Origin: Candidatus Saccharibacteria bacterium RIFCSPHIGHO2_02_FULL_47_12
Lineage (GTDB): Bacteria; Patescibacteriota; Saccharimonadia; Saccharimonadales; JANWIN01
Direction: 5' to 3'
Assembly: GCA_001790455.1 (NCBI GenBank)
Contig: MGCP01000036.1
Location: 353 to 34,191 of the forward strand
Length of the DNA stretch: 33,839 nucleotides
Numbering within the stretch: position 1 is the stretch's first letter; every line of letters starts with the position of its first letter. Of the stretch, positions 24,582-33,839 are shown one piece after another. Made by a program: the position numbers and the translations under genes. Under the pieces are notes generated by a model that ran no database searches, had not been told where the DNA came from, and saw nothing but the letters and a program-made list of their open reading frames with translations.

Positions 24582-27461
24582 ATGGCAGTACAGAAATCAC
24601 AATTTGCTGTCCTTGAAGAGGACATGCTAAAGATCTGGAAGAAAGAAAAAACCTTCCAGAACAGTTTAGATTTGCGAAAAGGCGCCAAACAGTTCAGCTT
24701 TTATGATGGGCCTCCGTTTGCAAATGGACTGCCACATTATGGCCATGTAGTACCCAGTACCATAAAAGACGCCATGGGACGGTACAAGACCATGCGTGGT
24801 TACTACGTACCACGAGTGGCGGGGTGGGATACTCATGGTTTGCCCGTTGAATACGAAGTAGAAAAACAGTTGGGTATATCTGGCAAAAAACAAATACTAA
24901 AACTTGGTGTAGACAAATTCAACCAAGCCTGCCGCGATTCTGTTTTTCGCTACAAGGGTGAGTTTGAAGATTTTATAAGCAGGTTAGGGAGATGGATTGA
25001 CCTAGAACACCCATACACCACGCTAGATGACAGTTACATAGAAAGTGTGTGGTGGGTTCTCAGCGAACTTCATAAAAAGGATCTGGTATACAGGAGCTTT
25101 CGCAGCATGCCTTACTGTCCGCGCTGCGCAACGCCACTGTCAAACTTTGAGCTAAACCAGGGTTACCAAGACGATGTAGAAGATCCAAGTGTCTACGTAA
25201 CGTTTCCCCTAAAGAGCGATCCAGATACGGCCTTACTGGCCTGGACAACCACCCCTTGGACTCTGTATGCCAATGAGTTACTAGCAGTCAAACCAGACGC
25301 TACCTACGCAACTGTTGAGCTTAAAAACCCGGTAGATATAAACGTCAAGCGGCTGATTTTGGCTAAGAACAGACTAAGTGAATTAGACCTACGCAAGTCA
25401 GAATATAGGGTTGTAAAGACCCAAAAGGGCCAGGAGCTAGTCGGCCAAAAATATGAGCCTTTGTACAAAGTTACAACGTTATCTGCCAAAGACCTAGAGA
25501 ACGCTTACCAGGTTTTACCAGAATCAACTGTAAGCCTAGAGGATGGCACGGGGGTATTGCACGTGGCGCCGCGTTACGGAGAAGTAGACCTAGCCCTAGG
25601 CCTAAAGCACCGTTTGCCGCTTATTAGTAGCGTAGATAATACCGGTCAAATGGTGCCCGAGCTAAACGATGTAGCGGGGCAGTTCTTTAAAGATGCGGAT
25701 CCGCATATAATTGCCCATCTTACTAAGGAAAAGAGAGTGTTTGCAGCTGAAACCATAAAGCATACCTACCCATTCTGCTGGCGGTGTGATTCCCCACTGC
25801 TGCATTACGCCACCCCTAGTTGGTTTGTGAAAGTTACAACATTTACAGATAAGCTGGTCAAAAATAATGAACAAATAAATTGGGTACCGAAACATATCAA
25901 AGCGGGTCGTTTTGGCAACTGGCTGGCCGACGCACGTGACTGGGGAATCTCTAGAAACAGATTCTGGGGAGCACCTTTGCCTATTTGGGTAAACGAAGAA
26001 GATGACACAGACATAATTGTTGTAAGTTCACTAGAAGAACTAAGCAAGCTGTCTGGGCAAGACAAGTTTGATCTACACCGCCCAGGTATAGATATGGTGA
26101 TTATTAAGAAAGACGGCAAGACCTACAAACGCGTAGAAGAAGTGTTTGATTGCTGGTTTGAATCTGGCTCTATGCCCTATGGCCAAGGACACTATCCGTT
26201 TGAAAACAAAGAAGAGTTTAACACCGGGTTTCCGGCGGACTTTATATCTGAAGGGCTAGACCAAACCAGGGGCTGGTTCTATACCTTGCATGTGCTTGCT
26301 ACTGGGTTATTTGACAAACCGGCATACAAAAACGTGGTTTGTCACGGTATTGTCCTGGCAGCAGACGGCAAAAAACTCAGCAAACGCCTGCGCAACTACC
26401 CACCATTAGAAGAGGTTTTTAACACCTACGGTGCAGACATACTGCGTTTCTTTATGCTAAACAGCCCAGTAGTGGTGGGTGAAAACGTTCGCTTTGGCGC
26501 TGACCTACTAAAAGACGTTCAGAGAAACGTATTTATGACGCTACAGAACGTACACAGATTCTTCCAAACTTATACAGGGGTAGACAAGTGGCAACCAGAA
26601 TCATTTGAGTTGCCAAACGCAACCCATGTTTTAGACAGGTGGATCTTAGCTCGACTTCAGCAGACTATAAACGAGGTCACAAAGCAGGCGGATGCCTACA
26701 GGCTAGACAAGGCTACGGATCCACTGGTGTCTTTTGTAGATGACTTGTCGAACTGGTACGTACGCCGCAGCAGGCGCCGTTTCTGGAAGAGCGAGAACGA
26801 CAGTGACAAGCTGGAGGCTTATACCACGCTCCACTACGTTTTAGTTCGCTTAACCCAGCTATTTGCACCCTGGTCACCATTTATAAGCGACCACTTATGG
26901 CGTGAACTTACAAAAGGTCTTAATCTGCCACAATCAGTACATTTGAGCGACTGGCCCAAGGAAGAAGAAGTAGATAACCATGTCATAGAACAGATGGAGC
27001 TAGCCAGGAACTATATAAACGAAGGACTTGGCCAAAGGGCTAGCGCCGGCATAAAAGTCCGCCAGCCTCTAGCTAGCCTAGAGATACCAAGGCTAGACAA
27101 GGAGTTGCAAGCAGTTATTGCCGAAGAGGTAAATGTTAAAGAGGTGGTTGCCGCTAAGGGAAGCAAGGTCGTGCTGGATATACGTCTAACAGAGGACCTG
27201 AAAGCAGAGGGCCTTATGCGCGACCTGGTGCGCCAGATTCAGGAAGCCCGCAAAAAAGCTGGCCTAGAGGTAAGCGACCGCATACACCTAGACGTCAAAT
27301 CAGACGACAAGACGGTTCAAAAAGCCCTAGACGTATTTACAGACGTAATAAAGCTGGAAACGCTAGCAGTAAGCCTCAATGAAGCCCACAAACCATCTAG
27401 CCATGAGTCCCTTGCCAAGGTTGAGGGCAAGGAAGTGGTGATTGGCCTCGCAAAGGCGTAG
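24582..27461 (+). CDS. ileS: Isoleucyl-tRNA synthetase (type 2, eukaryote-like)
   Basis: PFANGLPHYGH (HIGH), the CP1 editing domain, and KLSKRLRNYP (KMSKS). Confidence 0.95.
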   Translation: MAVQKSQFAVLEEDMLKIWKKEKTFQNSLDLRKGAKQFSFYDGPPFANGLPHYGHVVPSTIKDAMGRYKTMRGYYVPRVAGWDTHGLPVEYEVEKQLGISGKKQILKLGVDKFNQACRDSVFRYKGEFEDFISRLGRWIDLEHPYTTLDDSYIESVWWVLSELHKKDLVYRSFRSMPYCPRCATPLSNFELNQGYQDDVEDPSVYVTFPLKSDPDTALLAWTTTPWTLYANELLAVKPDATYATVELKNPVDINVKRLILAKNRLSELDLRKSEYRVVKTQKGQELVGQKYEPLYKVTTLSAKDLENAYQVLPESTVSLEDGTGVLHVAPRYGEVDLALGLKHRLPLISSVDNTGQMVPELNDVAGQFFKDADPHIIAHLTKEKRVFAAETIKHTYPFCWRCDSPLLHYATPSWFVKVTTFTDKLVKNNEQINWVPKHIKAGRFGNWLADARDWGISRNRFWGAPLPIWVNEEDDTDIIVVSSLEELSKLSGQDKFDLHRPGIDMVIIKKDGKTYKRVEEVFDCWFESGSMPYGQGHYPFENKEEFNTGFPADFISEGLDQTRGWFYTLHVLATGLFDKPAYKNVVCHGIVLAADGKKLSKRLRNYPPLEEVFNTYGADILRFFMLNSPVVVGENVRFGADLLKDVQRNVFMTLQNVHRFFQTYTGVDKWQPESFELPNATHVLDRWILARLQQTINEVTKQADAYRLDKATDPLVSFVDDLSNWYVRRSRRRFWKSENDSDKLEAYTTLHYVLVRLTQLFAPWSPFISDHLWRELTKGLNLPQSVHLSDWPKEEEVDNHVIEQMELARNYINEGLGQRASAGIKVRQPLASLEIPRLDKELQAVIAEEVNVKEVVAAKGSKVVLDIRLTEDLKAEGLMRDLVRQIQEARKKAGLEVSDRIHLDVKSDDKTVQKALDVFTDVIKLETLAVSLNEAHKPSSHESLAKVEGKEVVIGLAKA

Positions 27462-27472
27462 TATCTAAAGGA

Positions 27473-27497
27473 AAGGACGCTTGTACAAAGCGTCCTT
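27473..27497 (+). terminator. Hairpin after ileS (no U-tract)
   Basis: AAGGACGCTT-GTACA-AAGCGTCCTT, a 10-bp stem. The downstream sequence is not T-rich, so its role as a terminator or processing site is uncertain. Confidence 0.4.
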
Positions 27498-27523
27498 ATC
27501 TGTTAAACTCTTTCGGTATATTT

Positions 27524-27832
27524 ATGAAAAAAGCAGTAATTACTACCGGTGGAAAGCAGTACCTCGTGTCTGAAGGTGATGAGTTCAATGTGGAACTGAT
27601 CAGCTCAAAAGACAACAAGCTTTCTTTTGAACCTCTTCTAACCATTGACGGAGATAAAGTTACCGTTGGTAAGCCAACAGTCGATGGCTCTAAGGTTAGC
27701 GCTGAAATTATCGAAGCCCAGCTAAAGGCAGACAAAGTGACAGCTATTCGTTATAAAGCCAAAAAACGAGTAAGAAAAGTACACGGCCACAGGCAAAATC
27801 TTACCAAAATAAAAATTACTAAAATCAGCTAA
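27524..27832 (+). CDS. rplU: 50S ribosomal protein L21
   Basis: AVITTGGKQYLVSEGD N-terminus and a basic C-terminus (KKRVRKVHGHRQ). Confidence 0.92.
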   Translation: MKKAVITTGGKQYLVSEGDEFNVELISSKDNKLSFEPLLTIDGDKVTVGKPTVDGSKVSAEIIEAQLKADKVTAIRYKAKKRVRKVHGHRQNLTKIKITKIS

Positions 27833-27858
27833 CTCCATACCTGTTAGTAGCTTCATTT

Positions 27859-27913
27859 GTCACACTTTTTTGCTTTACTTGGTCACACTTCTTCGCTTGA
27901 CTTGGTCACACTT
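27859..27913 (+). repeat. Three GTCACACTT direct repeats at exact 23-bp phasing
   Basis: Copies at 27859-27867, 27882-27890 and 27905-27913. The last two extend to GCTT(T/G)ACTTGGTCACACTT. Confidence 0.85.
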
Positions 27914-27925
27914 TGAGCCGATAAT
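27897..27925 (+). promoter_or_regulatory. Promoter of the 27984 membrane-protein gene
   Basis: TTGACT, 17-nt spacer, GATAAT. The third GTCAC repeat sits in the spacer, 8 nt from the start of the -35. Confidence 0.6.
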
Positions 27926-27983
27926 GGCTCTTGAATAGCATTAGGGGTATAAAAAAGAAACCGGTAAATATACCATAAGTGAT

Positions 27984-28919
27984 ATGAAGAATCTGGCTAA
28001 AAAGTTGACTCAGCATAACAGGGATCCGTTCTATCGGGGTTATTCTTGGACAACCAAGCTTATGTGGCTTTTGCGGTATCTAGGGGGGCGGGCAACAGCG
28101 CAAATAAGGAAGCTACGATGGACTACTTTGATAACAATCCTAGCGATCCTATCTATACTACCCACCAGCATATATGCAGCTAGTATTGCCCAGGGTTATA
28201 CATCGAGCGACAAAGGGTTGCAGGTAGGCATGGCTGCCTCACTAGTAAATCCAGAATCCGGTACTACCGGTGAGGTAGAAGCGGCGACAAACAAAACCCA
28301 GGACAAGTTTGTAGGAATAGTTACAACAAAAGACACAAATTCAGTAGTTATAACTGACAAAAACCAAACGGTTTATATTACAACAGAAGGACAAACTAAG
28401 GCCCTGGTGTCTGATGTAGGGGGTTTAATCAAGCAGGGAGATCATTTAACGCTCTCACCGCTTAGAGGTTACCTCATGAAGGGTAACTCCTCTGACCTAA
28501 AAAGTGTCGCTGTAGCGCTTGAGGACTTTCCCAGTCAAAACAACACCAAGGTAGAGGTAAAGGACGTAGACAATCAAATAAAAGCTGTACAAGCAGCCTC
28601 TATGGGCGTAGAAGTACGCAGACCAGAGTTTGTAGATGTCACCTATAGCAAGCGCCCACTACTAACAAATTTTGCTCGGTCACTAACGGGTAAAGAGGTA
28701 AGCCAGTGGCAGGTAATTATAGCTCTAGTAATCTTCTTTGTACTTTTGGTAGCCATTGGTTCTGTCATATACAGCGCAGTCCACAGCACCATAGAGGCGC
28801 TAGGGCGGAACCCCTTGGCGAAAGCAGACATCTATAAAGAATTTATGCAGGTTTTGCTCATCTCTGTTGCCATATTAATTTTTGGCGGACTGATGATTTT
28901 CGTACTTTTGTGGTTATAG
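27984..28919 (+). CDS. Hypothetical membrane protein (N-terminal anchor, ~170-aa external domain, two C-terminal TM helices)
   Basis: 311 aa. Hydrophobic segments LITILAILSILPTSIYAA, VIIALVIFFVLLVAIGSVIYSAV and VLLISVAILIFGGLMIFVLLWL. No recognisable catalytic motif. Confidence 0.7.
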   Translation: MKNLAKKLTQHNRDPFYRGYSWTTKLMWLLRYLGGRATAQIRKLRWTTLITILAILSILPTSIYAASIAQGYTSSDKGLQVGMAASLVNPESGTTGEVEAATNKTQDKFVGIVTTKDTNSVVITDKNQTVYITTEGQTKALVSDVGGLIKQGDHLTLSPLRGYLMKGNSSDLKSVAVALEDFPSQNNTKVEVKDVDNQIKAVQAASMGVEVRRPEFVDVTYSKRPLLTNFARSLTGKEVSQWQVIIALVIFFVLLVAIGSVIYSAVHSTIEALGRNPLAKADIYKEFMQVLLISVAILIFGGLMIFVLLWL

Positions 28920-28944
28920 TTGGTAGTTAAGTACAAGTTGCCTG

Positions 28945-29016
28945 CAGTGTTGCAAATCATGAATGAAGAAGAGGGTGAATAACCCTATTTCGTAATGTCA
29001 AGATTTTGCAACACTG
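28945..29016. repeat. 12-bp perfect inverted repeat with a 48-nt loop
   Basis: CAGTGTTGCAAA (28945-28956) pairs with TTTGCAACACTG (29005-29016). An inner AGGGT-GAATAA-CCCT hairpin is also present. Confidence 0.6.
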
Positions 29017-29162
29017 TGGATAAGTACGGCAAAACGTCACAACAAACACCTTGAAGATAATATATTTTTTACAACGTTAAAGTACGGGAAACAGATAGGC
29101 ATAAGGGTTATTAATTTCATAAAACCAGGTATTAATTTCTAGGGTAAATTATTAGTGCAAAA

Positions 29163-29214
29163 GTCACGTTTTATATCTTGACGCTGTCACGTTTTGGGCG
29201 GATAATTGTCACAG
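29163..29214 (+). repeat. Three GTCAC direct repeats spaced 23 and 22 bp
   Basis: GTCACGTTTT at 29163-29172, GTCACGTTTT at 29186-29195 and GTCACAG at 29208-29214. Confidence 0.8.
29178..29206 (+). promoter_or_regulatory. Promoter of the giant surface-protein gene
   Basis: TTGACG, 17-nt spacer, GATAAT. A GTCAC repeat sits in the spacer at the same +8 offset as at 27897-27925. 19 of the 26 positions that follow the shared CTTGAC match between the two promoters. Confidence 0.6.
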
Positions 29215-29264
29215 TAACTGAACACAAAATTTAATAAACCAAAAATAACAAAGCTGATACAAAA

Positions 29265-32200
29265 ATGACTAAAACCTGCCAAGCCTGTAACACAGTTTTT
29301 GAAGGGCGCCGTCATGCCAAGACGTGTTCAGACAAATGCCGCAAGCGGATGCAGCGTTTGGCACAAGCGGCAGCCCAAGAGCTTGAACGGGTTGAGGTAC
29401 GTGCCGAAAATACAGTCCGCGATGTCGCCCGTGAAGTGCGGCGGGACGTGCAGACAATAGAGACTTCTTTGGGCAAAGTTGCAGGAAGCCAAGCAGGGTT
29501 TGCGGCTATAGCCGAGCCACTGGTTGCTCCTGGCGTGGCAAAGCAGGCTTATCAGACTCCGTCACAACCTAGACAGACACAGATTGCCAGTAGCCAGCCC
29601 GTAGCACAGACACCCACCATACCTAGCCCGAGCCCAGAAGCAGATGTGACACCAAACATAGTTTCTGACTTGCCGGTGGCACCGGCTCCCAAACAGTCGG
29701 TACCTCAGCCCAAACCAGTAGAACAAACCGTGCAAATTGTGCACGAGCCCATTTCGCAGCCAGCAGCAGCCCCACCACCAATAACTAACACGGCTAGGCT
29801 AGGTATAGACGTAGTACCTGCTAAACCAAACCAGCCAGTACCTGCACCACAACCCAATTCTTCATACAAATCTGTGGATCCGGATTACATACTAACTCCG
29901 GTTGATTCTAACGCTGGGGTATCAAATTTAGCTAAGCCCGCGCAAACCCAACCAAAACCACCGGTTCAGCCTGCTGTAACCCCGCTGACAGGGCAGGCAC
30001 AACCCCAATCAGTGACAATTCCCACACCCCAAATACCAGTATCGACGTCACTGCCAGAAGCCGAATCGCTAGAATCCCAAACCGTTGCCGAGCAAAAGCC
30101 AGATCAGGCCTTTGCTGGCGCTTCAAGCCAGGACAGCCAACAAAACACCTTTGCCAGCCAGTTCCAACCTCAATCACAGACAGAGGCTAAATCCAGCCAA
30201 CCAGAAGCTAGTGGGCTGGTTAAGGCAAAGAAACGTTTGTTTAAAGTAAACAAAACCTTGGTAAAACTTGCTGGGGTTGCTGCTCTGCTAACTCTTTTGG
30301 TCGGTGGATGGGGTCTGTACATAGGCGATCACACCCGACCAGATACGGGCTCTGTTACACAAAGCATACCAGAGCAAACGCTTGGTCTATCTGCCTCGGA
30401 AATAGCTCGTCTAAGCGGTGACTTTCCTTATAACCAACAACAACAACTGTTAGTCCAGGGAGACGGTATATTTACGGGCAACCTAACGGCGGCTAACTTT
30501 GTGGGCGGTGGTGCTGGTTTGACAAGCCTAAATGCCAGCAATATTTCATCTGGCACCATTAGCGCGGACCGTCTGCCAGATAACGTTACGCTGCTTGGCG
30601 ACAGTATTCCGCTTGCCAACCTGCAGGGTTCGGTCGTATCGAGCCTAAACAACGTTACCAACAATGGCGGAAACATCAATCTGGTGGCTGGCGCTAACAT
30701 TACCATAACAGCCGATGATGCCACCGACGCAATTACCATTAGCGCAGATTTGCTGGGTGGCGGCTCTAGCTTTGGCGACATTTTCAACAACGGCCAAACC
30801 GGCCCGGTTCGTATTGGTACAAACGACGCCACGAGCACCATTTTAGAAACCAATGACACAGATCGGCTAACTATAGACAGTAGTGGCACCTTTACGTTTA
30901 ACGGTAGCGCATCTAGCAACATTGTATTTGGCGGGGTAACAGTCTCTGCCGCCGAGCTAAACCTTCTAGACGGCCACGACGTAGCCCTGGTAGACGTAAA
31001 CGACGCCGTAAATACAGCCATAATTGGCACCGGCGCTCTAAACGTCGGTTCTATAACCTCTGGTTTTGGTTCCATAGACACCGGAAGCGACAACATTACT
31101 ACCACCGGAACAGTCTTTGGCAACAACTTTGACCGGTCTAGCGCCGGAGGACTAACCTTTGGTGACACAAATGCGAGCAGTGTTTCTATTTGCAACTCAG
31201 CAAGCTGCGACACCGTGACCATAGGCACCAACACCGATGCCGACATTATATCTATAGGAGACGGCAGCGATACGCTCAATTTGACTGCTGCTACCACCAC
31301 CGTTAGTGGTCACACCAGTGGTGCTGCTAACGCTTTGGTGGTTACCAACTCTACCAGTACCGGCAATATTTTGGTCCTAAATGACAATATAACTACCGTA
31401 GCTACAGTAGCCGATGGCGGTGCAGTGACCTTCCAAAACTCAGCAGACTCTGCTGCGGCATTACGGATTCTAAATGCTGCTGGCACCGGTATTATTACTG
31501 CCGACACCAGTGCCGGCACGGTAAAGCTTGGAACTTCTGGCTCCTTGACCGGTGGCCTAGTATTTCAGCACGCTGTTGGTGCAGGCAGCATAGTCTTGCT
31601 GGGGGATAACCCGGGTGCTAGCAGCTACACCATCACTCTGCCGGCAGCCACCGGATCGGTTTGTCTAACCTCTGGCAACTGTGCTGGTGTAGGTGGCACC
31701 GGCGACTTACTAAACAACGGACAGCCAGGTGCTATCAGGGTAGGCACAAATGACGCCACCAGTTTGTTCTTAGAAACCAACAACACCGATCGCTTGACCA
31801 TTACAAGTGCTGGCAACGCTACCTACGTAGGCGGCACTACTGGCGATGCTCTAACTATCTCTAACTCTACATCTACCGGCAACATCCTGGTGCTACAAGA
31901 CAACCTAACAAACGTGCTAACTATTGCCGATGGCGGTGCAGCTACCTTCCAAAACTCAGTAGACTCAACCACTGGCTTTAGGGTGCTAGATCTAGATGGC
32001 GGTAACCCTGTTCTAAACGTAGACACACTAAACGAAAGGGTTGGGATTGGCCTATCTAACCCCGGCTATGCACTTGATATAAATGGTGATCTGAACCTGC
32101 AGCTGGGCAATGCCTTTCGCATAGGTGGCACAGCTATTTGTACCAGCGGTGGTTGTGCCGCCGAGGCTGGCTCTGCCAACTACATCCAAAACAGTGCTAG

Positions 32201-33839
32201 CTTGCAGGTAGGGGGCAACTTCTATATAGAGAGCGCTTCTATAAACAGTGTGGCGGGGGCCATAAAAGGCAAAACAGGCCAAGTGTCTGATTTGTTCCAG
32301 CTAGAAGACAGTAATGGTGTAGACGTAGTGACCTTTGGTGCTACCGGAAACTTGCTGGTCAAGCCGTCTACAAACTCTGCCAGTGCATTTCAGGTTCAAG
32401 ACTCGACAGGCAACAACTATATCGCGGCAGATACATCAGGCGGCGCGGTTAACCTATGTAATTCTGCCAATTGCGACACTGTGTCCATCGGCACCAACGC
32501 CGACGCCGATGCCATTAACATAGGCGACAGCCTAGACACCCTTACTCTCACTGGCAGCAGTGCCAGCACTATAGTCCTAAATGGCATAACCGTCTCTGCC
32601 GCCGAGCTAAACCTTCTAGACGGCCACGACGTAGCCCTGGTAGACATAAACGACGCCGTAAATACAGCCATAATTGGCACTGGTGCCCTAAACGTCGGTT
32701 CTATAACCTCTGGTTTTGGTTCCATAGACACCGGAAGCGACAACATCACCACCACCGGCACAGTCTATGGCAACAACTTTGACCGATCTAGTGTTGGAGG
32801 ACTAACCTTAGGTACCACAAATGCCAATGCGGTAACGGTTAGCAATAGTGGAGCCACAACCACTATCAATGGTGCCTCGGTTTCTATATCCAGTAGTGGC
32901 TTTCTTGCCTCTACTACTATTACGGGCGCGCTAACTCTAAATCTTGGTAATGCGACAACGACGGTTATTAATCAACGGTCGTCTGGAGGTGGCGTTATTG
33001 GTATTGGCGACAACGCTGTAGCTAATACCATCTATATCGGCGCCAACGGTGTCAACACAGGCAATACTCAGACAATTTTACTTGGTGCTCTCGGTGCGGC
33101 TGGCACTACCAACGTCACTATCGGTAGTAACAACAACGCCACAGCAGGTACTACTACCATCCAATCAAAAGGCACACTGGCAGTTGGGAATACTATTTCA
33201 CCCACCATCAACATCCAGGGTGGCGCAGCTGGCACCATTGGCATTGGTAATAATGCTGTAGCCAATACCATCCAAATTGGCGCCACCTCTACCGGTGGCA
33301 ATACGCAAACAGTCAACATTGGCACCAACAACGCCGCCGGCACTACCAATGTCACAATTGGCACAGGATCATCCGCCACCGCCGGTACCACTACCATCCA
33401 ATCAAAAGGTGCTCTGGCGCTCGGTAATAGTATCAGCTCATCTATCGCTATCCAGGGTACTGTAGACGGTGGTGGCATAAGTATTGGCACCTCTAATACA
33501 ACCGCCGGCATTGCGCTTGGTGGTAGCACCCAAACAGGTACGATTACCATTGGGCAGTCACTGGTTACGAATACCATTAATATTGGTGCTGCTGGGTCCA
33601 GTTTTGGTACGCAGACTATCAATATTGGCAATACTTCTAATGGGGGCGCTATTGTAAACACAACTTTAGGATACGCGGGCGCCAATAGCACGTCCCCAAC
33701 TGCTTCGGCAACAGTTATCCAATCAGGGAGTGGCAATATCAAACTCAATGCCAATGGTGGTAGTGTGCTGGTTCAAAATTCTACCAACAGCAATACTGCG
33801 TTTATGATCCAGAACGCCAATGCTAGCAATACCATATTC
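29265..33839 (+). CDS. Giant repetitive cell-surface protein, 3'-truncated by the window end (at least 1525 codons)
   Basis: I translated it by hand in the frame of ATG 29265. An in-frame TAA lies at 29235, and I found no stop through 33839. MTKTCQACNTVFEGRRHAKTCSDKCRKRMQR is a Cys4 motif. It is followed by ~240 aa rich in P/Q, then KKRLFKVNKTLVK plus the TM helix LAGVAALLTLLVGGWGLYIG (~30267-30326), then G/T/N/S/A-rich repeat modules. The ORF is absent from the track, presumably because it has no stop in the window. Confidence 0.9.
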   Translation, partial: MTKTCQACNTVFEGRRHAKTCSDKCRKRMQRLAQAAAQELERVEVRAENTVRDVAREVRRDVQTIETSLGKVAGSQAGFAAIAEPLVAPGVAKQAYQTPSQPRQTQIASSQPVAQTPTIPSPSPEADVTPNIVSDLPVAPAPKQSVPQPKPVEQTVQIVHEPISQPAAAPPPITNTARLGIDVVPAKPNQPVPAPQPNSSYKSVDPDYILTPVDSNAGVSNLAKPAQTQPKPPVQPAVTPLTGQAQPQSVTIPTPQIPVSTSLPEAESLESQTVAEQKPDQAFAGASSQDSQQNTFASQFQPQSQTEAKSSQPEASGLVKAKKRLFKVNKTLVKLAGVAALLTLLVGGWGLYIGDHTRPDTGSVTQSIPEQTLGLSASEIARLSGDFPYNQQQQLLVQGDGIFTGNLTAANFVGGGAGLTSLNASNISSGTISADRLPDNVTLLGDSIPLANLQGSVVSSLNNVTNNGGNINLVAGANITITADDATDAITISADLLGGGSSFGDIFNNGQTGPVRIGTNDATSTILETNDTDRLTIDSSGTFTFNGSASSNIVFGGVTVSAAELNLLDGHDVALVDVNDAVNTAIIGTGALNVGSITSGFGSIDTGSDNITTTGTVFGNNFDRSSAGGLTFGDTNASSVSICNSASCDTVTIGTNTDADIISIGDGSDTLNLTAATTTVSGHTSGAANALVVTNSTSTGNILVLNDNITTVATVADGGAVTFQNSADSAAALRILNAAGTGIITADTSAGTVKLGTSGSLTGGLVFQHAVGAGSIVLLGDNPGASSYTITLPAATGSVCLTSGNCAGVGGTGDLLNNGQPGAIRVGTNDATSLFLETNNTDRLTITSAGNATYVGGTTGDALTISNSTSTGNILVLQDNLTNVLTIADGGAATFQNSVDSTTGFRVLDLDGGNPVLNVDTLNERVGIGLSNPGYALDINGDLNLQLGNAFRIGGTAICTSGGCAAEAGSANYIQNSASLQVGGNFYIESASINSVAGAIKGKTGQVSDLFQLEDSNGVDVVTFGATGNLLVKPSTNSASAFQVQDSTGNNYIAADTSGGAVNLCNSANCDTVSIGTNADADAINIGDSLDTLTLTGSSASTIVLNGITVSAAELNLLDGHDVALVDINDAVNTAIIGTGALNVGSITSGFGSIDTGSDNITTTGTVYGNNFDRSSVGGLTLGTTNANAVTVSNSGATTTINGASVSISSSGFLASTTITGALTLNLGNATTTVINQRSSGGGVIGIGDNAVANTIYIGANGVNTGNTQTILLGALGAAGTTNVTIGSNNNATAGTTTIQSKGTLAVGNTISPTINIQGGAAGTIGIGNNAVANTIQIGATSTGGNTQTVNIGTNNAAGTTNVTIGTGSSATAGTTTIQSKGALALGNSISSSIAIQGTVDGGGISIGTSNTTAGIALGGSTQTGTITIGQSLVTNTINIGAAGSSFGTQTINIGNTSNGGAIVNTTLGYAGANSTSPTASATVIQSGSGNIKLNANGGSVLVQNSTNSNTAFMIQNANASNTIF
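30942..31174 (+). repeat. Intragenic repeat A1 (VSAAELNLLDGHDVALVD.NDAVNTAIIGTGALNVGSITSGFGSIDTGSDNITTTG..)
   Basis: ~93% nt identity to 32592-32824, including identical runs of 54, 34 and 59 bp. The offset is exactly 1650 bp (550 codons). Confidence 0.9.
32592..32824 (+). repeat. Intragenic repeat A2
   Basis: Partner of 30942-31174. Confidence 0.9.
33000..33479 (+). repeat. Tandem ~237-240-bp (79-80 aa) repeat units, with a third degenerate unit to ~33750
   Basis: Unit starts are GGTATTGGCGACAACGCTGTAGCTAATACCATC (33000) and GGCATTGGTAATAATGCTGTAGCCAATACCATC (33240). A shared 20-mer ACTACCATCCAATCAAAAGG occurs at 33153 and 33390. Confidence 0.85.

Follow-up and report, generated by a model that had tools for sequence, protein, structure and literature searches.

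The window analysed here is a stretch of 33,839 nucleotides in which ileS and rplU are followed by a short region with three direct repeats, a gene for a 311-aa membrane protein and a giant ORF that starts at 29265. Other assemblies of the organism show the surface protein encoded by this ORF at its full length, 4,782 aa. The features around the repeats are, in order:

27524 to 27832, + strand: rplU, ribosomal protein L21 (Pfam Ribosomal_L21p, E 1.7e-27)
27856 to 27878, + strand: box 1 unit, a species-specific extra 23-bp unit found with Tandem Repeats Finder (TRF), with GTCACACTT at 27859-27867
27874 to 27879, + strand: TTTACT, a putatively decayed copy of the -35 hexamer within the region of the extra unit
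27882 to 27890, + strand: box 2, the putative ancestral box A, starting 15 nt upstream of -35
27897 to 27902, + strand: -35 hexamer TTGACT (promoter scan), with TTGAC invariant in six species
27905 to 27913, + strand: box 3, the putative ancestral box B, at position 3 of the 17-bp spacer and starting 15 nt upstream of -10
27920 to 27925, + strand: -10 hexamer GATAAT (promoter scan), invariant in six species
27926 to 27983, + strand: predicted 5' leader of the membrane-protein gene, from an inferred transcription start
27984 to 28919, + strand: gene for the 311-aa membrane protein (ORF; homologues of 311 aa at 70% identity)

A search of the whole window found exactly three copies of GTCACACTT, all on the + strand, at 27859, 27882 and 27905, the positions given in an earlier note on this DNA, and none of 100 dinucleotide-preserving shuffles reached three matches (mean 0.19). 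TRF reported the array as 27859-27914, with a period of 23, 2.4 copies, 87% matches and a score of 91, the fourth highest in the genome (661 kb, 48 contigs). Because the period is 23, the repeated unit is 23 bp and extends beyond the 9 bp of the repeated word; the successive units read TTTGTCACACTTTTTTGCTTTAC, TTGGTCACACTTCTTCGCTTGAC and TTGGTCACACTTTGAGCCGATAA. The consensus of these putative operator boxes is GTCAC-R-N-TTT.

The best sigma-70-type match returned by a promoter scan of 27400-28200 was TTGACT (27897), a 17-bp spacer and GATAAT (27920), scoring 10/12; the pair has the -35 near TTGACA, the spacer of 17 ± 1 bp and the -10 near TATAAT of a sigma-70-type promoter. As had been claimed, the third repeat lies between these two hexamers, within the spacer. 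The phasing of 23 bp is the sum of a hexamer and the spacer (6 + 17), since every box begins 15 nt upstream of a hexamer. With a helical repeat of 10.5 bp this makes 2.19 turns, and successive boxes are rotated by ~70 degrees, so that the boxes face one side of the DNA only roughly, and not exactly as the earlier note had proposed. No half-site is evident between the boxes, which lie 23 bp apart (22 bp for box C' of the second module described below).

The earlier note had also remarked that the array follows rplU in the place where rpmA would be expected. The array does follow rplU, and rpmA sits on another contig; this marks no disruption, since rplU followed by the membrane-protein gene, the giant gene or both is a gene order common in many genomes of the order and typical of the lineage. 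No intrinsic terminator was predicted between rplU and the array in a terminator scan, and an Rfam search of 27300-28300 returned nothing credible. Several independent assemblies of the organism have contigs that begin at this point: L034-L036 and L120-L122 start at 27847, 12 nt upstream of box 1, and L123 starts inside unit 2. Strain variation upstream, or an assembly break related to the repeat, may lie behind these contig starts.

By hydropathy, the membrane protein has transmembrane (TM) segments at ~46-70, 237-270 and 282-311 and an external domain of ~165 aa, and its only match in Pfam is a sub-threshold one to GOST_TM. The distance from -10 to the ATG is 58-59 nt in five of six species and 76 nt in the sixth (L047). 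An alignment of the six species shows two conserved blocks in the leader, AGCATTAGGGG (27937-27947) and AAATATACCATAAGTGAT (27966-27983); the leader (27926-27983) gave no Rfam match and has no obvious Shine-Dalgarno sequence next to the ATG.

A genome scan for phased GTCAC pairs located a second copy of the module, before the giant surface-protein gene, which reads GTCACGTTTT-ATATC-TTGACG-CT-GTCACGTTTT-GGGCG-GATAAT-T-GTCACAG:

29163 to 29214, + strand: second module, before the giant surface-protein gene
29163, + strand: start of box A', GTCACGTTTT
29178 to 29183, + strand: -35 hexamer TTGACG
29186, + strand: start of box B', GTCACGTTTT
29201 to 29206, + strand: -10 hexamer GATAAT
29208, + strand: start of box C', GTCACAG, overlapping the expected transcription start

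The boxes of this promoter therefore lie at about -50, -27 and -5. The second module stands 58 nt before the giant-gene ATG, a distance equal to that at the first promoter, and is almost invariant in all five related species introduced below. Because the giant gene has the same module, the two genes would form a small regulon.

The long intergenic region before the giant gene also contains a DnaA-box-like sequence, CTGTGGATAAGT (29012-29024; TGTGGATAA at 29015), which, like the further blocks TTTTTTACAAC and AACAGATAGGCATAAG, is kept in 5/5 related species. Many further genomes of the order also have the DnaA-box-like 9-mer after rplU, and ten copies are scattered through this genome, three of them in an identical AACTGTGGATAAGT context. 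It prompted the idea of a replication origin or iterons, which was rejected: copies of TTATCCACA are spread over many contigs, and the cumulative GC skew near the giant gene is at a maximum, not a minimum. Within 28500-33839, the GC skew itself turns from positive to negative at ~28.5-30 kb, at the start of the giant gene; this sign change is probably compositional rather than replication-related.

In a genome-wide count, a check that the earlier note had proposed, GTCACACTT occurs nine times on both strands against ~5 expected; of the six copies outside the array, five fall within long ORFs and the remaining one lies at a contig end. The GTCAC pentamer occurs 746 times on both strands, an observed/expected ratio of 0.99. 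These counts indicate that the cluster is real and local and that the 9-mer is no dispersed motif; restriction-modification avoidance or enrichment of GTCAC was likewise rejected on the ratio of 0.99. The combination TTGAC-N3-GTCAC is found in this genome only at the promoters of the membrane-protein gene and the giant gene, and three of the four cases of GTCAC-N18-GTCAC fall within these same two promoters. Since the pentamer is common, specificity must lie in the longer box and in the cooperative filling of phased arrays.

Conservation of the promoter was followed in contigs of five other species-level lineages (L041, L045, L047, L048 and L049), traced through membrane-protein homologues of 50-72% identity. 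The hexamers, TTGAC(T/G)-17-GATAAT, are kept in all five, as is a box 15 nt upstream of -35 (GTCACGCTT, GTCACGTTT, GTCACACTT, GTCACACTT and GCCACACTT). A clear second box at spacer position 3 is present in three of them (GTCACGGTT, GTCACAGTT and GTCACACTT) and degenerate in the other two (GTTATACTT and GCCAAGCTA); the spacing of the box pair in the relatives is exactly 23 bp. The stretch from the rplU stop to box A cannot be aligned between species, so that conservation starts abruptly at box A. Two broader searches were negative: the membrane-protein query found no relative in a genome contig collection, and the pattern GTCAC-NN-TT-N6-TTGAC-NN-GGTCAC, searched in genome and metagenome contig collections from which the relatives are evidently absent, gave unrelated, mostly coding matches, none of them near L21 or the membrane protein.

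The third box is found only in the window's species among the six species of the clade. The ancestral design would have been box A before -35 and box B before -10, within the spacer. The extra unit of this species is what slippage between these near-identical boxes would yield, a duplicate of one 23-bp unit (box A plus -35); it added a third box further upstream, and its own -35 copy later decayed to TTTACT. The units do lie head to tail, and the relatives carry the seeding boxes without the extra unit. Units 1 and 2 differ at 4/23 positions, with 0/9 substitutions in the 9-mer and 4/14 outside it; under uniform mutation this sparing of the 9-mer could be chance (p ~0.11), so that selection on the extra box is putative. 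The three-copy array is identical in all examined contigs of the species that span it (~20 contigs, more than ten samples, three protein variants), and no copy-number variant was seen in these ~20 assembled contigs, bearing in mind that assemblies drop rare variants. One relative offers a second example of slippage remodelling the module: in L047 (1566-1870) the box that follows -10 at the giant-gene promoter has been duplicated in tandem (TGTCACAGTAT TGTCACACAAC), and the upstream box has been lost.

The giant protein begins with a small cysteine-rich domain (hereafter the head), which is encoded as follows:

29265 to 29474, + strand: Cys4 zinc-ribbon head, aa 1-70 of the giant protein, candidate box-binding domain

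Using the first 74 residues of the giant protein (C-x2-C-x12-CS-x2-CRKR) as a query against 401 genomes of the order, we found the Cys4 head in 22, mostly at the N-terminus of very long ORFs (up to 7,644 aa). TTGAC-17-nATAAT promoters precede about 27 head genes; most of these promoters have a GTCAC-like box 15-16 nt upstream of -35, ~60% have another at spacer position 3 and some have a third directly after -10. The first base of the -10 is non-canonical throughout (GATAAT, AATAAT or CATAAT). The exact pattern GTCAC-N10/11-TTGAC-N3-GTCAC was present in 4/22 head-bearing genomes compared with 2/379 others (Fisher p = 1e-4, with kinship between genomes ignored), and the reversed-pattern control gave one match. 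Matches in head-bearing genomes always stood before a head gene or this membrane-protein gene, whereas both matches in headless genomes were not promoter-like. Distant members of the order in which rplU precedes the membrane-protein gene have no GTCAC boxes there, and G005, a genome of the same family with a head gene, has none at its membrane-protein promoter.

Boxes A and B resemble each other more within a promoter than between promoters (mean identity 6.31 vs 5.82 ± 0.17 of 10; p = 0.003), and variant pentamers change together (GTTAC/GTTAC, GGGAC/GGGAC, GTCCG/GTCTG). The head varies with the box as well: A[KR]TCS heads go with xTCAC boxes in 18/18 cases and other heads in 1/6, a covariation that rests on few lineages and has exceptions, namely a DAITCS head with a GTCAC box in L090 and identical heads with different degenerate boxes in L093 and L106. 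Several head-gene promoters (L082, L083, L086, L090 and L104) have boxes only upstream of -35, and L082, L097 and L104 independently have three boxes upstream. Three other genera carry the head as a direct fusion to the N-terminus of a membrane-protein homologue (L096/L108 from G394, L097 from G339 and L098 from G179), in ORFs of 344-353 aa with boxes upstream; in L097 these are three GTCAC boxes 21-22 bp apart. In one genome, G234, two Cys4 heads in tandem open a single ORF (G234:C1:741977-742297, L089, a 7,644-aa frame, and G234:C2:16-255, L104), an arrangement that would match direct-repeat sites.

The head has the invariant residues C5, C8, C21 and C25 and a basic CRKR; a P/Q-rich linker and then a single TM helix (aa ~328-354) come after it. 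An AlphaFold2 model made from a 25-sequence alignment (pLDDT 96.5) has a beta-hairpin at residues 2-13 and a long helix at 23-69 that opens with the basic CRKRMQR. Curated families gave no hit above cut-off, with weak similarity to DUF2256 and DUF2116 ('probable treble clef'); comparison with solved structures by sequence gave no match, and a Foldseek search with the model gave nothing at E <= 0.001. The weak top Foldseek matches were YacG (a protein binder), ribosomal L24e, an FCS finger and a DUF1470 protein; YacG, L24e and the FCS finger are not sequence-specific DNA readers. As modelled, the head fold is a treble-clef zinc ribbon, a type that binds nucleic acids or proteins, and sequence-specific DNA binding by it is putative.

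Neither a LytTR (PF04397) nor an OmpR/PhoB-type Trans_reg_C (PF00486) domain was found in this genome (86% complete), and all four receiver proteins (C38:3063, C37:10547, C11:2659 and C37:15924) lack a recognisable output domain. Three of these four have P/Q/A-rich low-complexity extensions at the N- or C-terminus, the long C-terminal tail of C38 being the most extreme; in composition these extensions resemble the giant-protein linker. The relative G010, whose genome is closed and 99% complete, has the exact module and no Trans_reg_C, and one OmpR-type regulator is present in five of seven head-bearing genomes checked. There is a single sigma-70-family gene in this genome, in G201, which has the exact module, and in G234, so that an alternative sigma factor is not needed. 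The proposal in the earlier note of a phased array bound by a regulator is strongly supported by the conservation in relatives, the second module and the recurrence across the order, but its two candidate binders are not: with one sigma factor, no LytTR or OmpR-type domain and receivers without output domains, the response-regulator and iteron readings are unsupported.

Several known systems resemble the module in part. LytTR operators (AgrA, ComE and PlnC type) are ~9-bp direct repeats, roughly two helical turns apart, that end just upstream of -35. Their period is 21-22 bp compared with 23 bp here and, unlike those operators, the module here places one box within the spacer, with a further box over the start site in the giant-gene promoter; their cognate domain is the LytTR domain that this genome lacks. 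Plasmid iterons are likewise direct repeats in phase, with a period of ~22-23 bp; they may lie across a promoter and bring about autorepression. The array here differs in being chromosomal, with only two or three copies tied to hexamers, and has no replicon context: no Rep gene or origin features lie nearby, and its neighbours are ileS, rplU, the membrane-protein gene and the giant gene, in conserved synteny. ToxR, CadC and TcpP combine an N-terminal cytoplasmic domain, one TM helix and an extracytoplasmic part with direct-repeat sites by -35, a layout that would be matched if the head binds the boxes; the giant protein does have the arrangement of a membrane-tethered one-component regulator (head at aa 1-70, P/Q linker, TM at ~328-354). 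However, the ToxR/CadC domain is a winged helix whereas the head is modelled as a Cys4 treble-clef zinc ribbon that carries a long basic helix, and the extracytoplasmic part consists here of a giant fibre exceeding 4,000 aa, or of the membrane protein, unlike in ToxR, CadC and TcpP. The closest known motif is the MtrA box of Mycobacterium, bound by the OmpR-family regulator MtrA, with direct repeats of GTCACAgcg in promoters (PMC4285127, PMC2945938). It shares the GTCACA core and the promoter location, but MtrA sites are two adjacent repeats whereas the boxes here are 23 bp apart and locked to -35 and -10, and the MtrA-type OmpR DNA-binding domain is absent from both this genome and the closed G010. 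The SARP heptamer repeats of Streptomyces promoters are direct repeats that overlap -35 at a fixed phase to -10 (PMC5930380). They have an 11-bp period and serve as sites for OmpR-type SARP activators, which are absent here.

From the sequence comparisons we consider it fairly probable that the GTCACACTT copies are operator-type boxes of a dedicated factor, built into the promoter of the membrane-protein gene and probably repressing it; the binding, its sign and the factor are all things that we infer. Three observations favour sites read by one sequence-specific factor over a neutral duplication or RNA-polymerase elements: the boxes are kept at fixed offsets while the coding sequences have diverged to 35-70% identity, they are confined to two promoters in the genome, and they vary in concert within a promoter. 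Such a factor would bind the phased boxes cooperatively, the array giving specificity, and its binding would block RNA polymerase and produce negative feedback. Repression by occlusion is favoured because the hexamers are near consensus and the boxes lie on both sides of -35, occupy the spacer and, in the giant-gene promoter, extend over the start site. For the lineages with boxes only upstream of -35, activation fits as well as repression.

Other explanations have to be weighed against these putative operators. A conventional response regulator, either of the OmpR/PhoB family (MtrA-like) or of the LytTR family, seems a quite improbable reader of the boxes. The OmpR-type regulator in five of the seven genomes checked speaks for it, as does the fact that LytTR regulators bind 9-bp direct repeats ~21-22 bp apart upstream of -35; it is opposed by the missing Trans_reg_C and LytTR domains and outputless receivers of this genome, by the presence of the exact module in the closed G010 without Trans_reg_C, and by the half-sites of MtrA/OmpR-type operators, which are adjacent, ~10-11 bp apart, rather than 23 bp. 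Alternatively, no dedicated factor exists and the boxes are promoter-intrinsic elements (UP-like, spacer or alternative-sigma sites) that tune promoter strength. The fixed 15-nt offset of each box from a hexamer would be expected in that case, and the non-canonical first base of the -10 suggests a special promoter class. However, the three genomes mentioned have one sigma-70-family gene each, the boxes occur at only two promoters in the genome and co-vary within promoters, and different parts of RNA polymerase would have to read one sequence at -50, -27 and -5; we regard this explanation as improbable.

A narrower alternative grants function to boxes 2 and 3 and takes box 1 (27856-27878) to be a neutral by-product of slippage without function. 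Its restriction to one of six species, the decay of its -35 copy, the non-significant substitution pattern and the recurrence of slippage in the module (the box C duplication of L047) are all consistent with this, but the unit is fixed, with no difference among the contigs and strain variants examined for the species, its 9-mer is intact while its flanks have changed, and three boxes are also found, independently, in L082, L097 and L104 and at the giant promoter. On balance we hold a functionless box 1 to be rather unlikely. Finally, the array could be a phase-variation switch, operating through copy number by slippage, or an RNA-level element in transcripts that read through from rplU. That the 23-bp tandem unit includes a -35 and that no terminator is predicted after rplU could be read in this way; the uniform copy number in ~20 contigs from more than ten samples (with the same reservation about assemblies and rare variants), the lack of an Rfam match and the conservation of the boxes relative to the hexamers, not to an RNA structure, make it highly improbable.

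If the boxes are operators of a dedicated factor, as we prefer, the head at the cytoplasmic N-terminus of the giant protein is the leading candidate, because it is the only feature that travels with the module through three protein architectures; this inferred role is a matter of association, not proof, and the co-occurrence could also be co-inheritance, since promoter and head coding sequence are physically linked. The Cys4 treble-clef head would then make the giant protein a membrane-tethered autoregulator. Carried further, and here we are tentative, judging it possible but short of even chances, the boxes would be targets of a transcription factor of a kind not described before, in which a Cys4 treble-clef zinc ribbon is joined to a basic helix. 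Carried on giant surface fibres and tethered by a P/Q linker, this factor would act back on the surface-module promoters and thereby couple the cell-surface state of these ultrasmall episymbionts to transcription without a two-component system. As part of the same tentative reading, the factor would sit on the partner membrane protein in some genera or occur as tandem double heads.

Almost nothing is known about gene regulation in bacteria of the candidate phyla radiation, which have very few recognisable transcription factors. We found no description of the module in the literature searched, and it has the appearance of an undescribed circuit dedicated to controlling the surface of an ultrasmall bacterial cell. 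What is defined here is a precise, conserved cis-regulatory module (box, -35, box, -10 and an optional further box), tied to the largest and presumably costliest genes of these cells, those of the giant surface fibres thought to mediate attachment. The third box confined to one species provides a natural experiment in which slippage between operator repeats would have remodelled a promoter. Both the short DNA fragment and the 70-residue domain are open to direct testing in vitro or in a surrogate host, and if the head binds the boxes, this would be a new use of its fold in DNA binding and a new form of membrane-tethered autoregulation.
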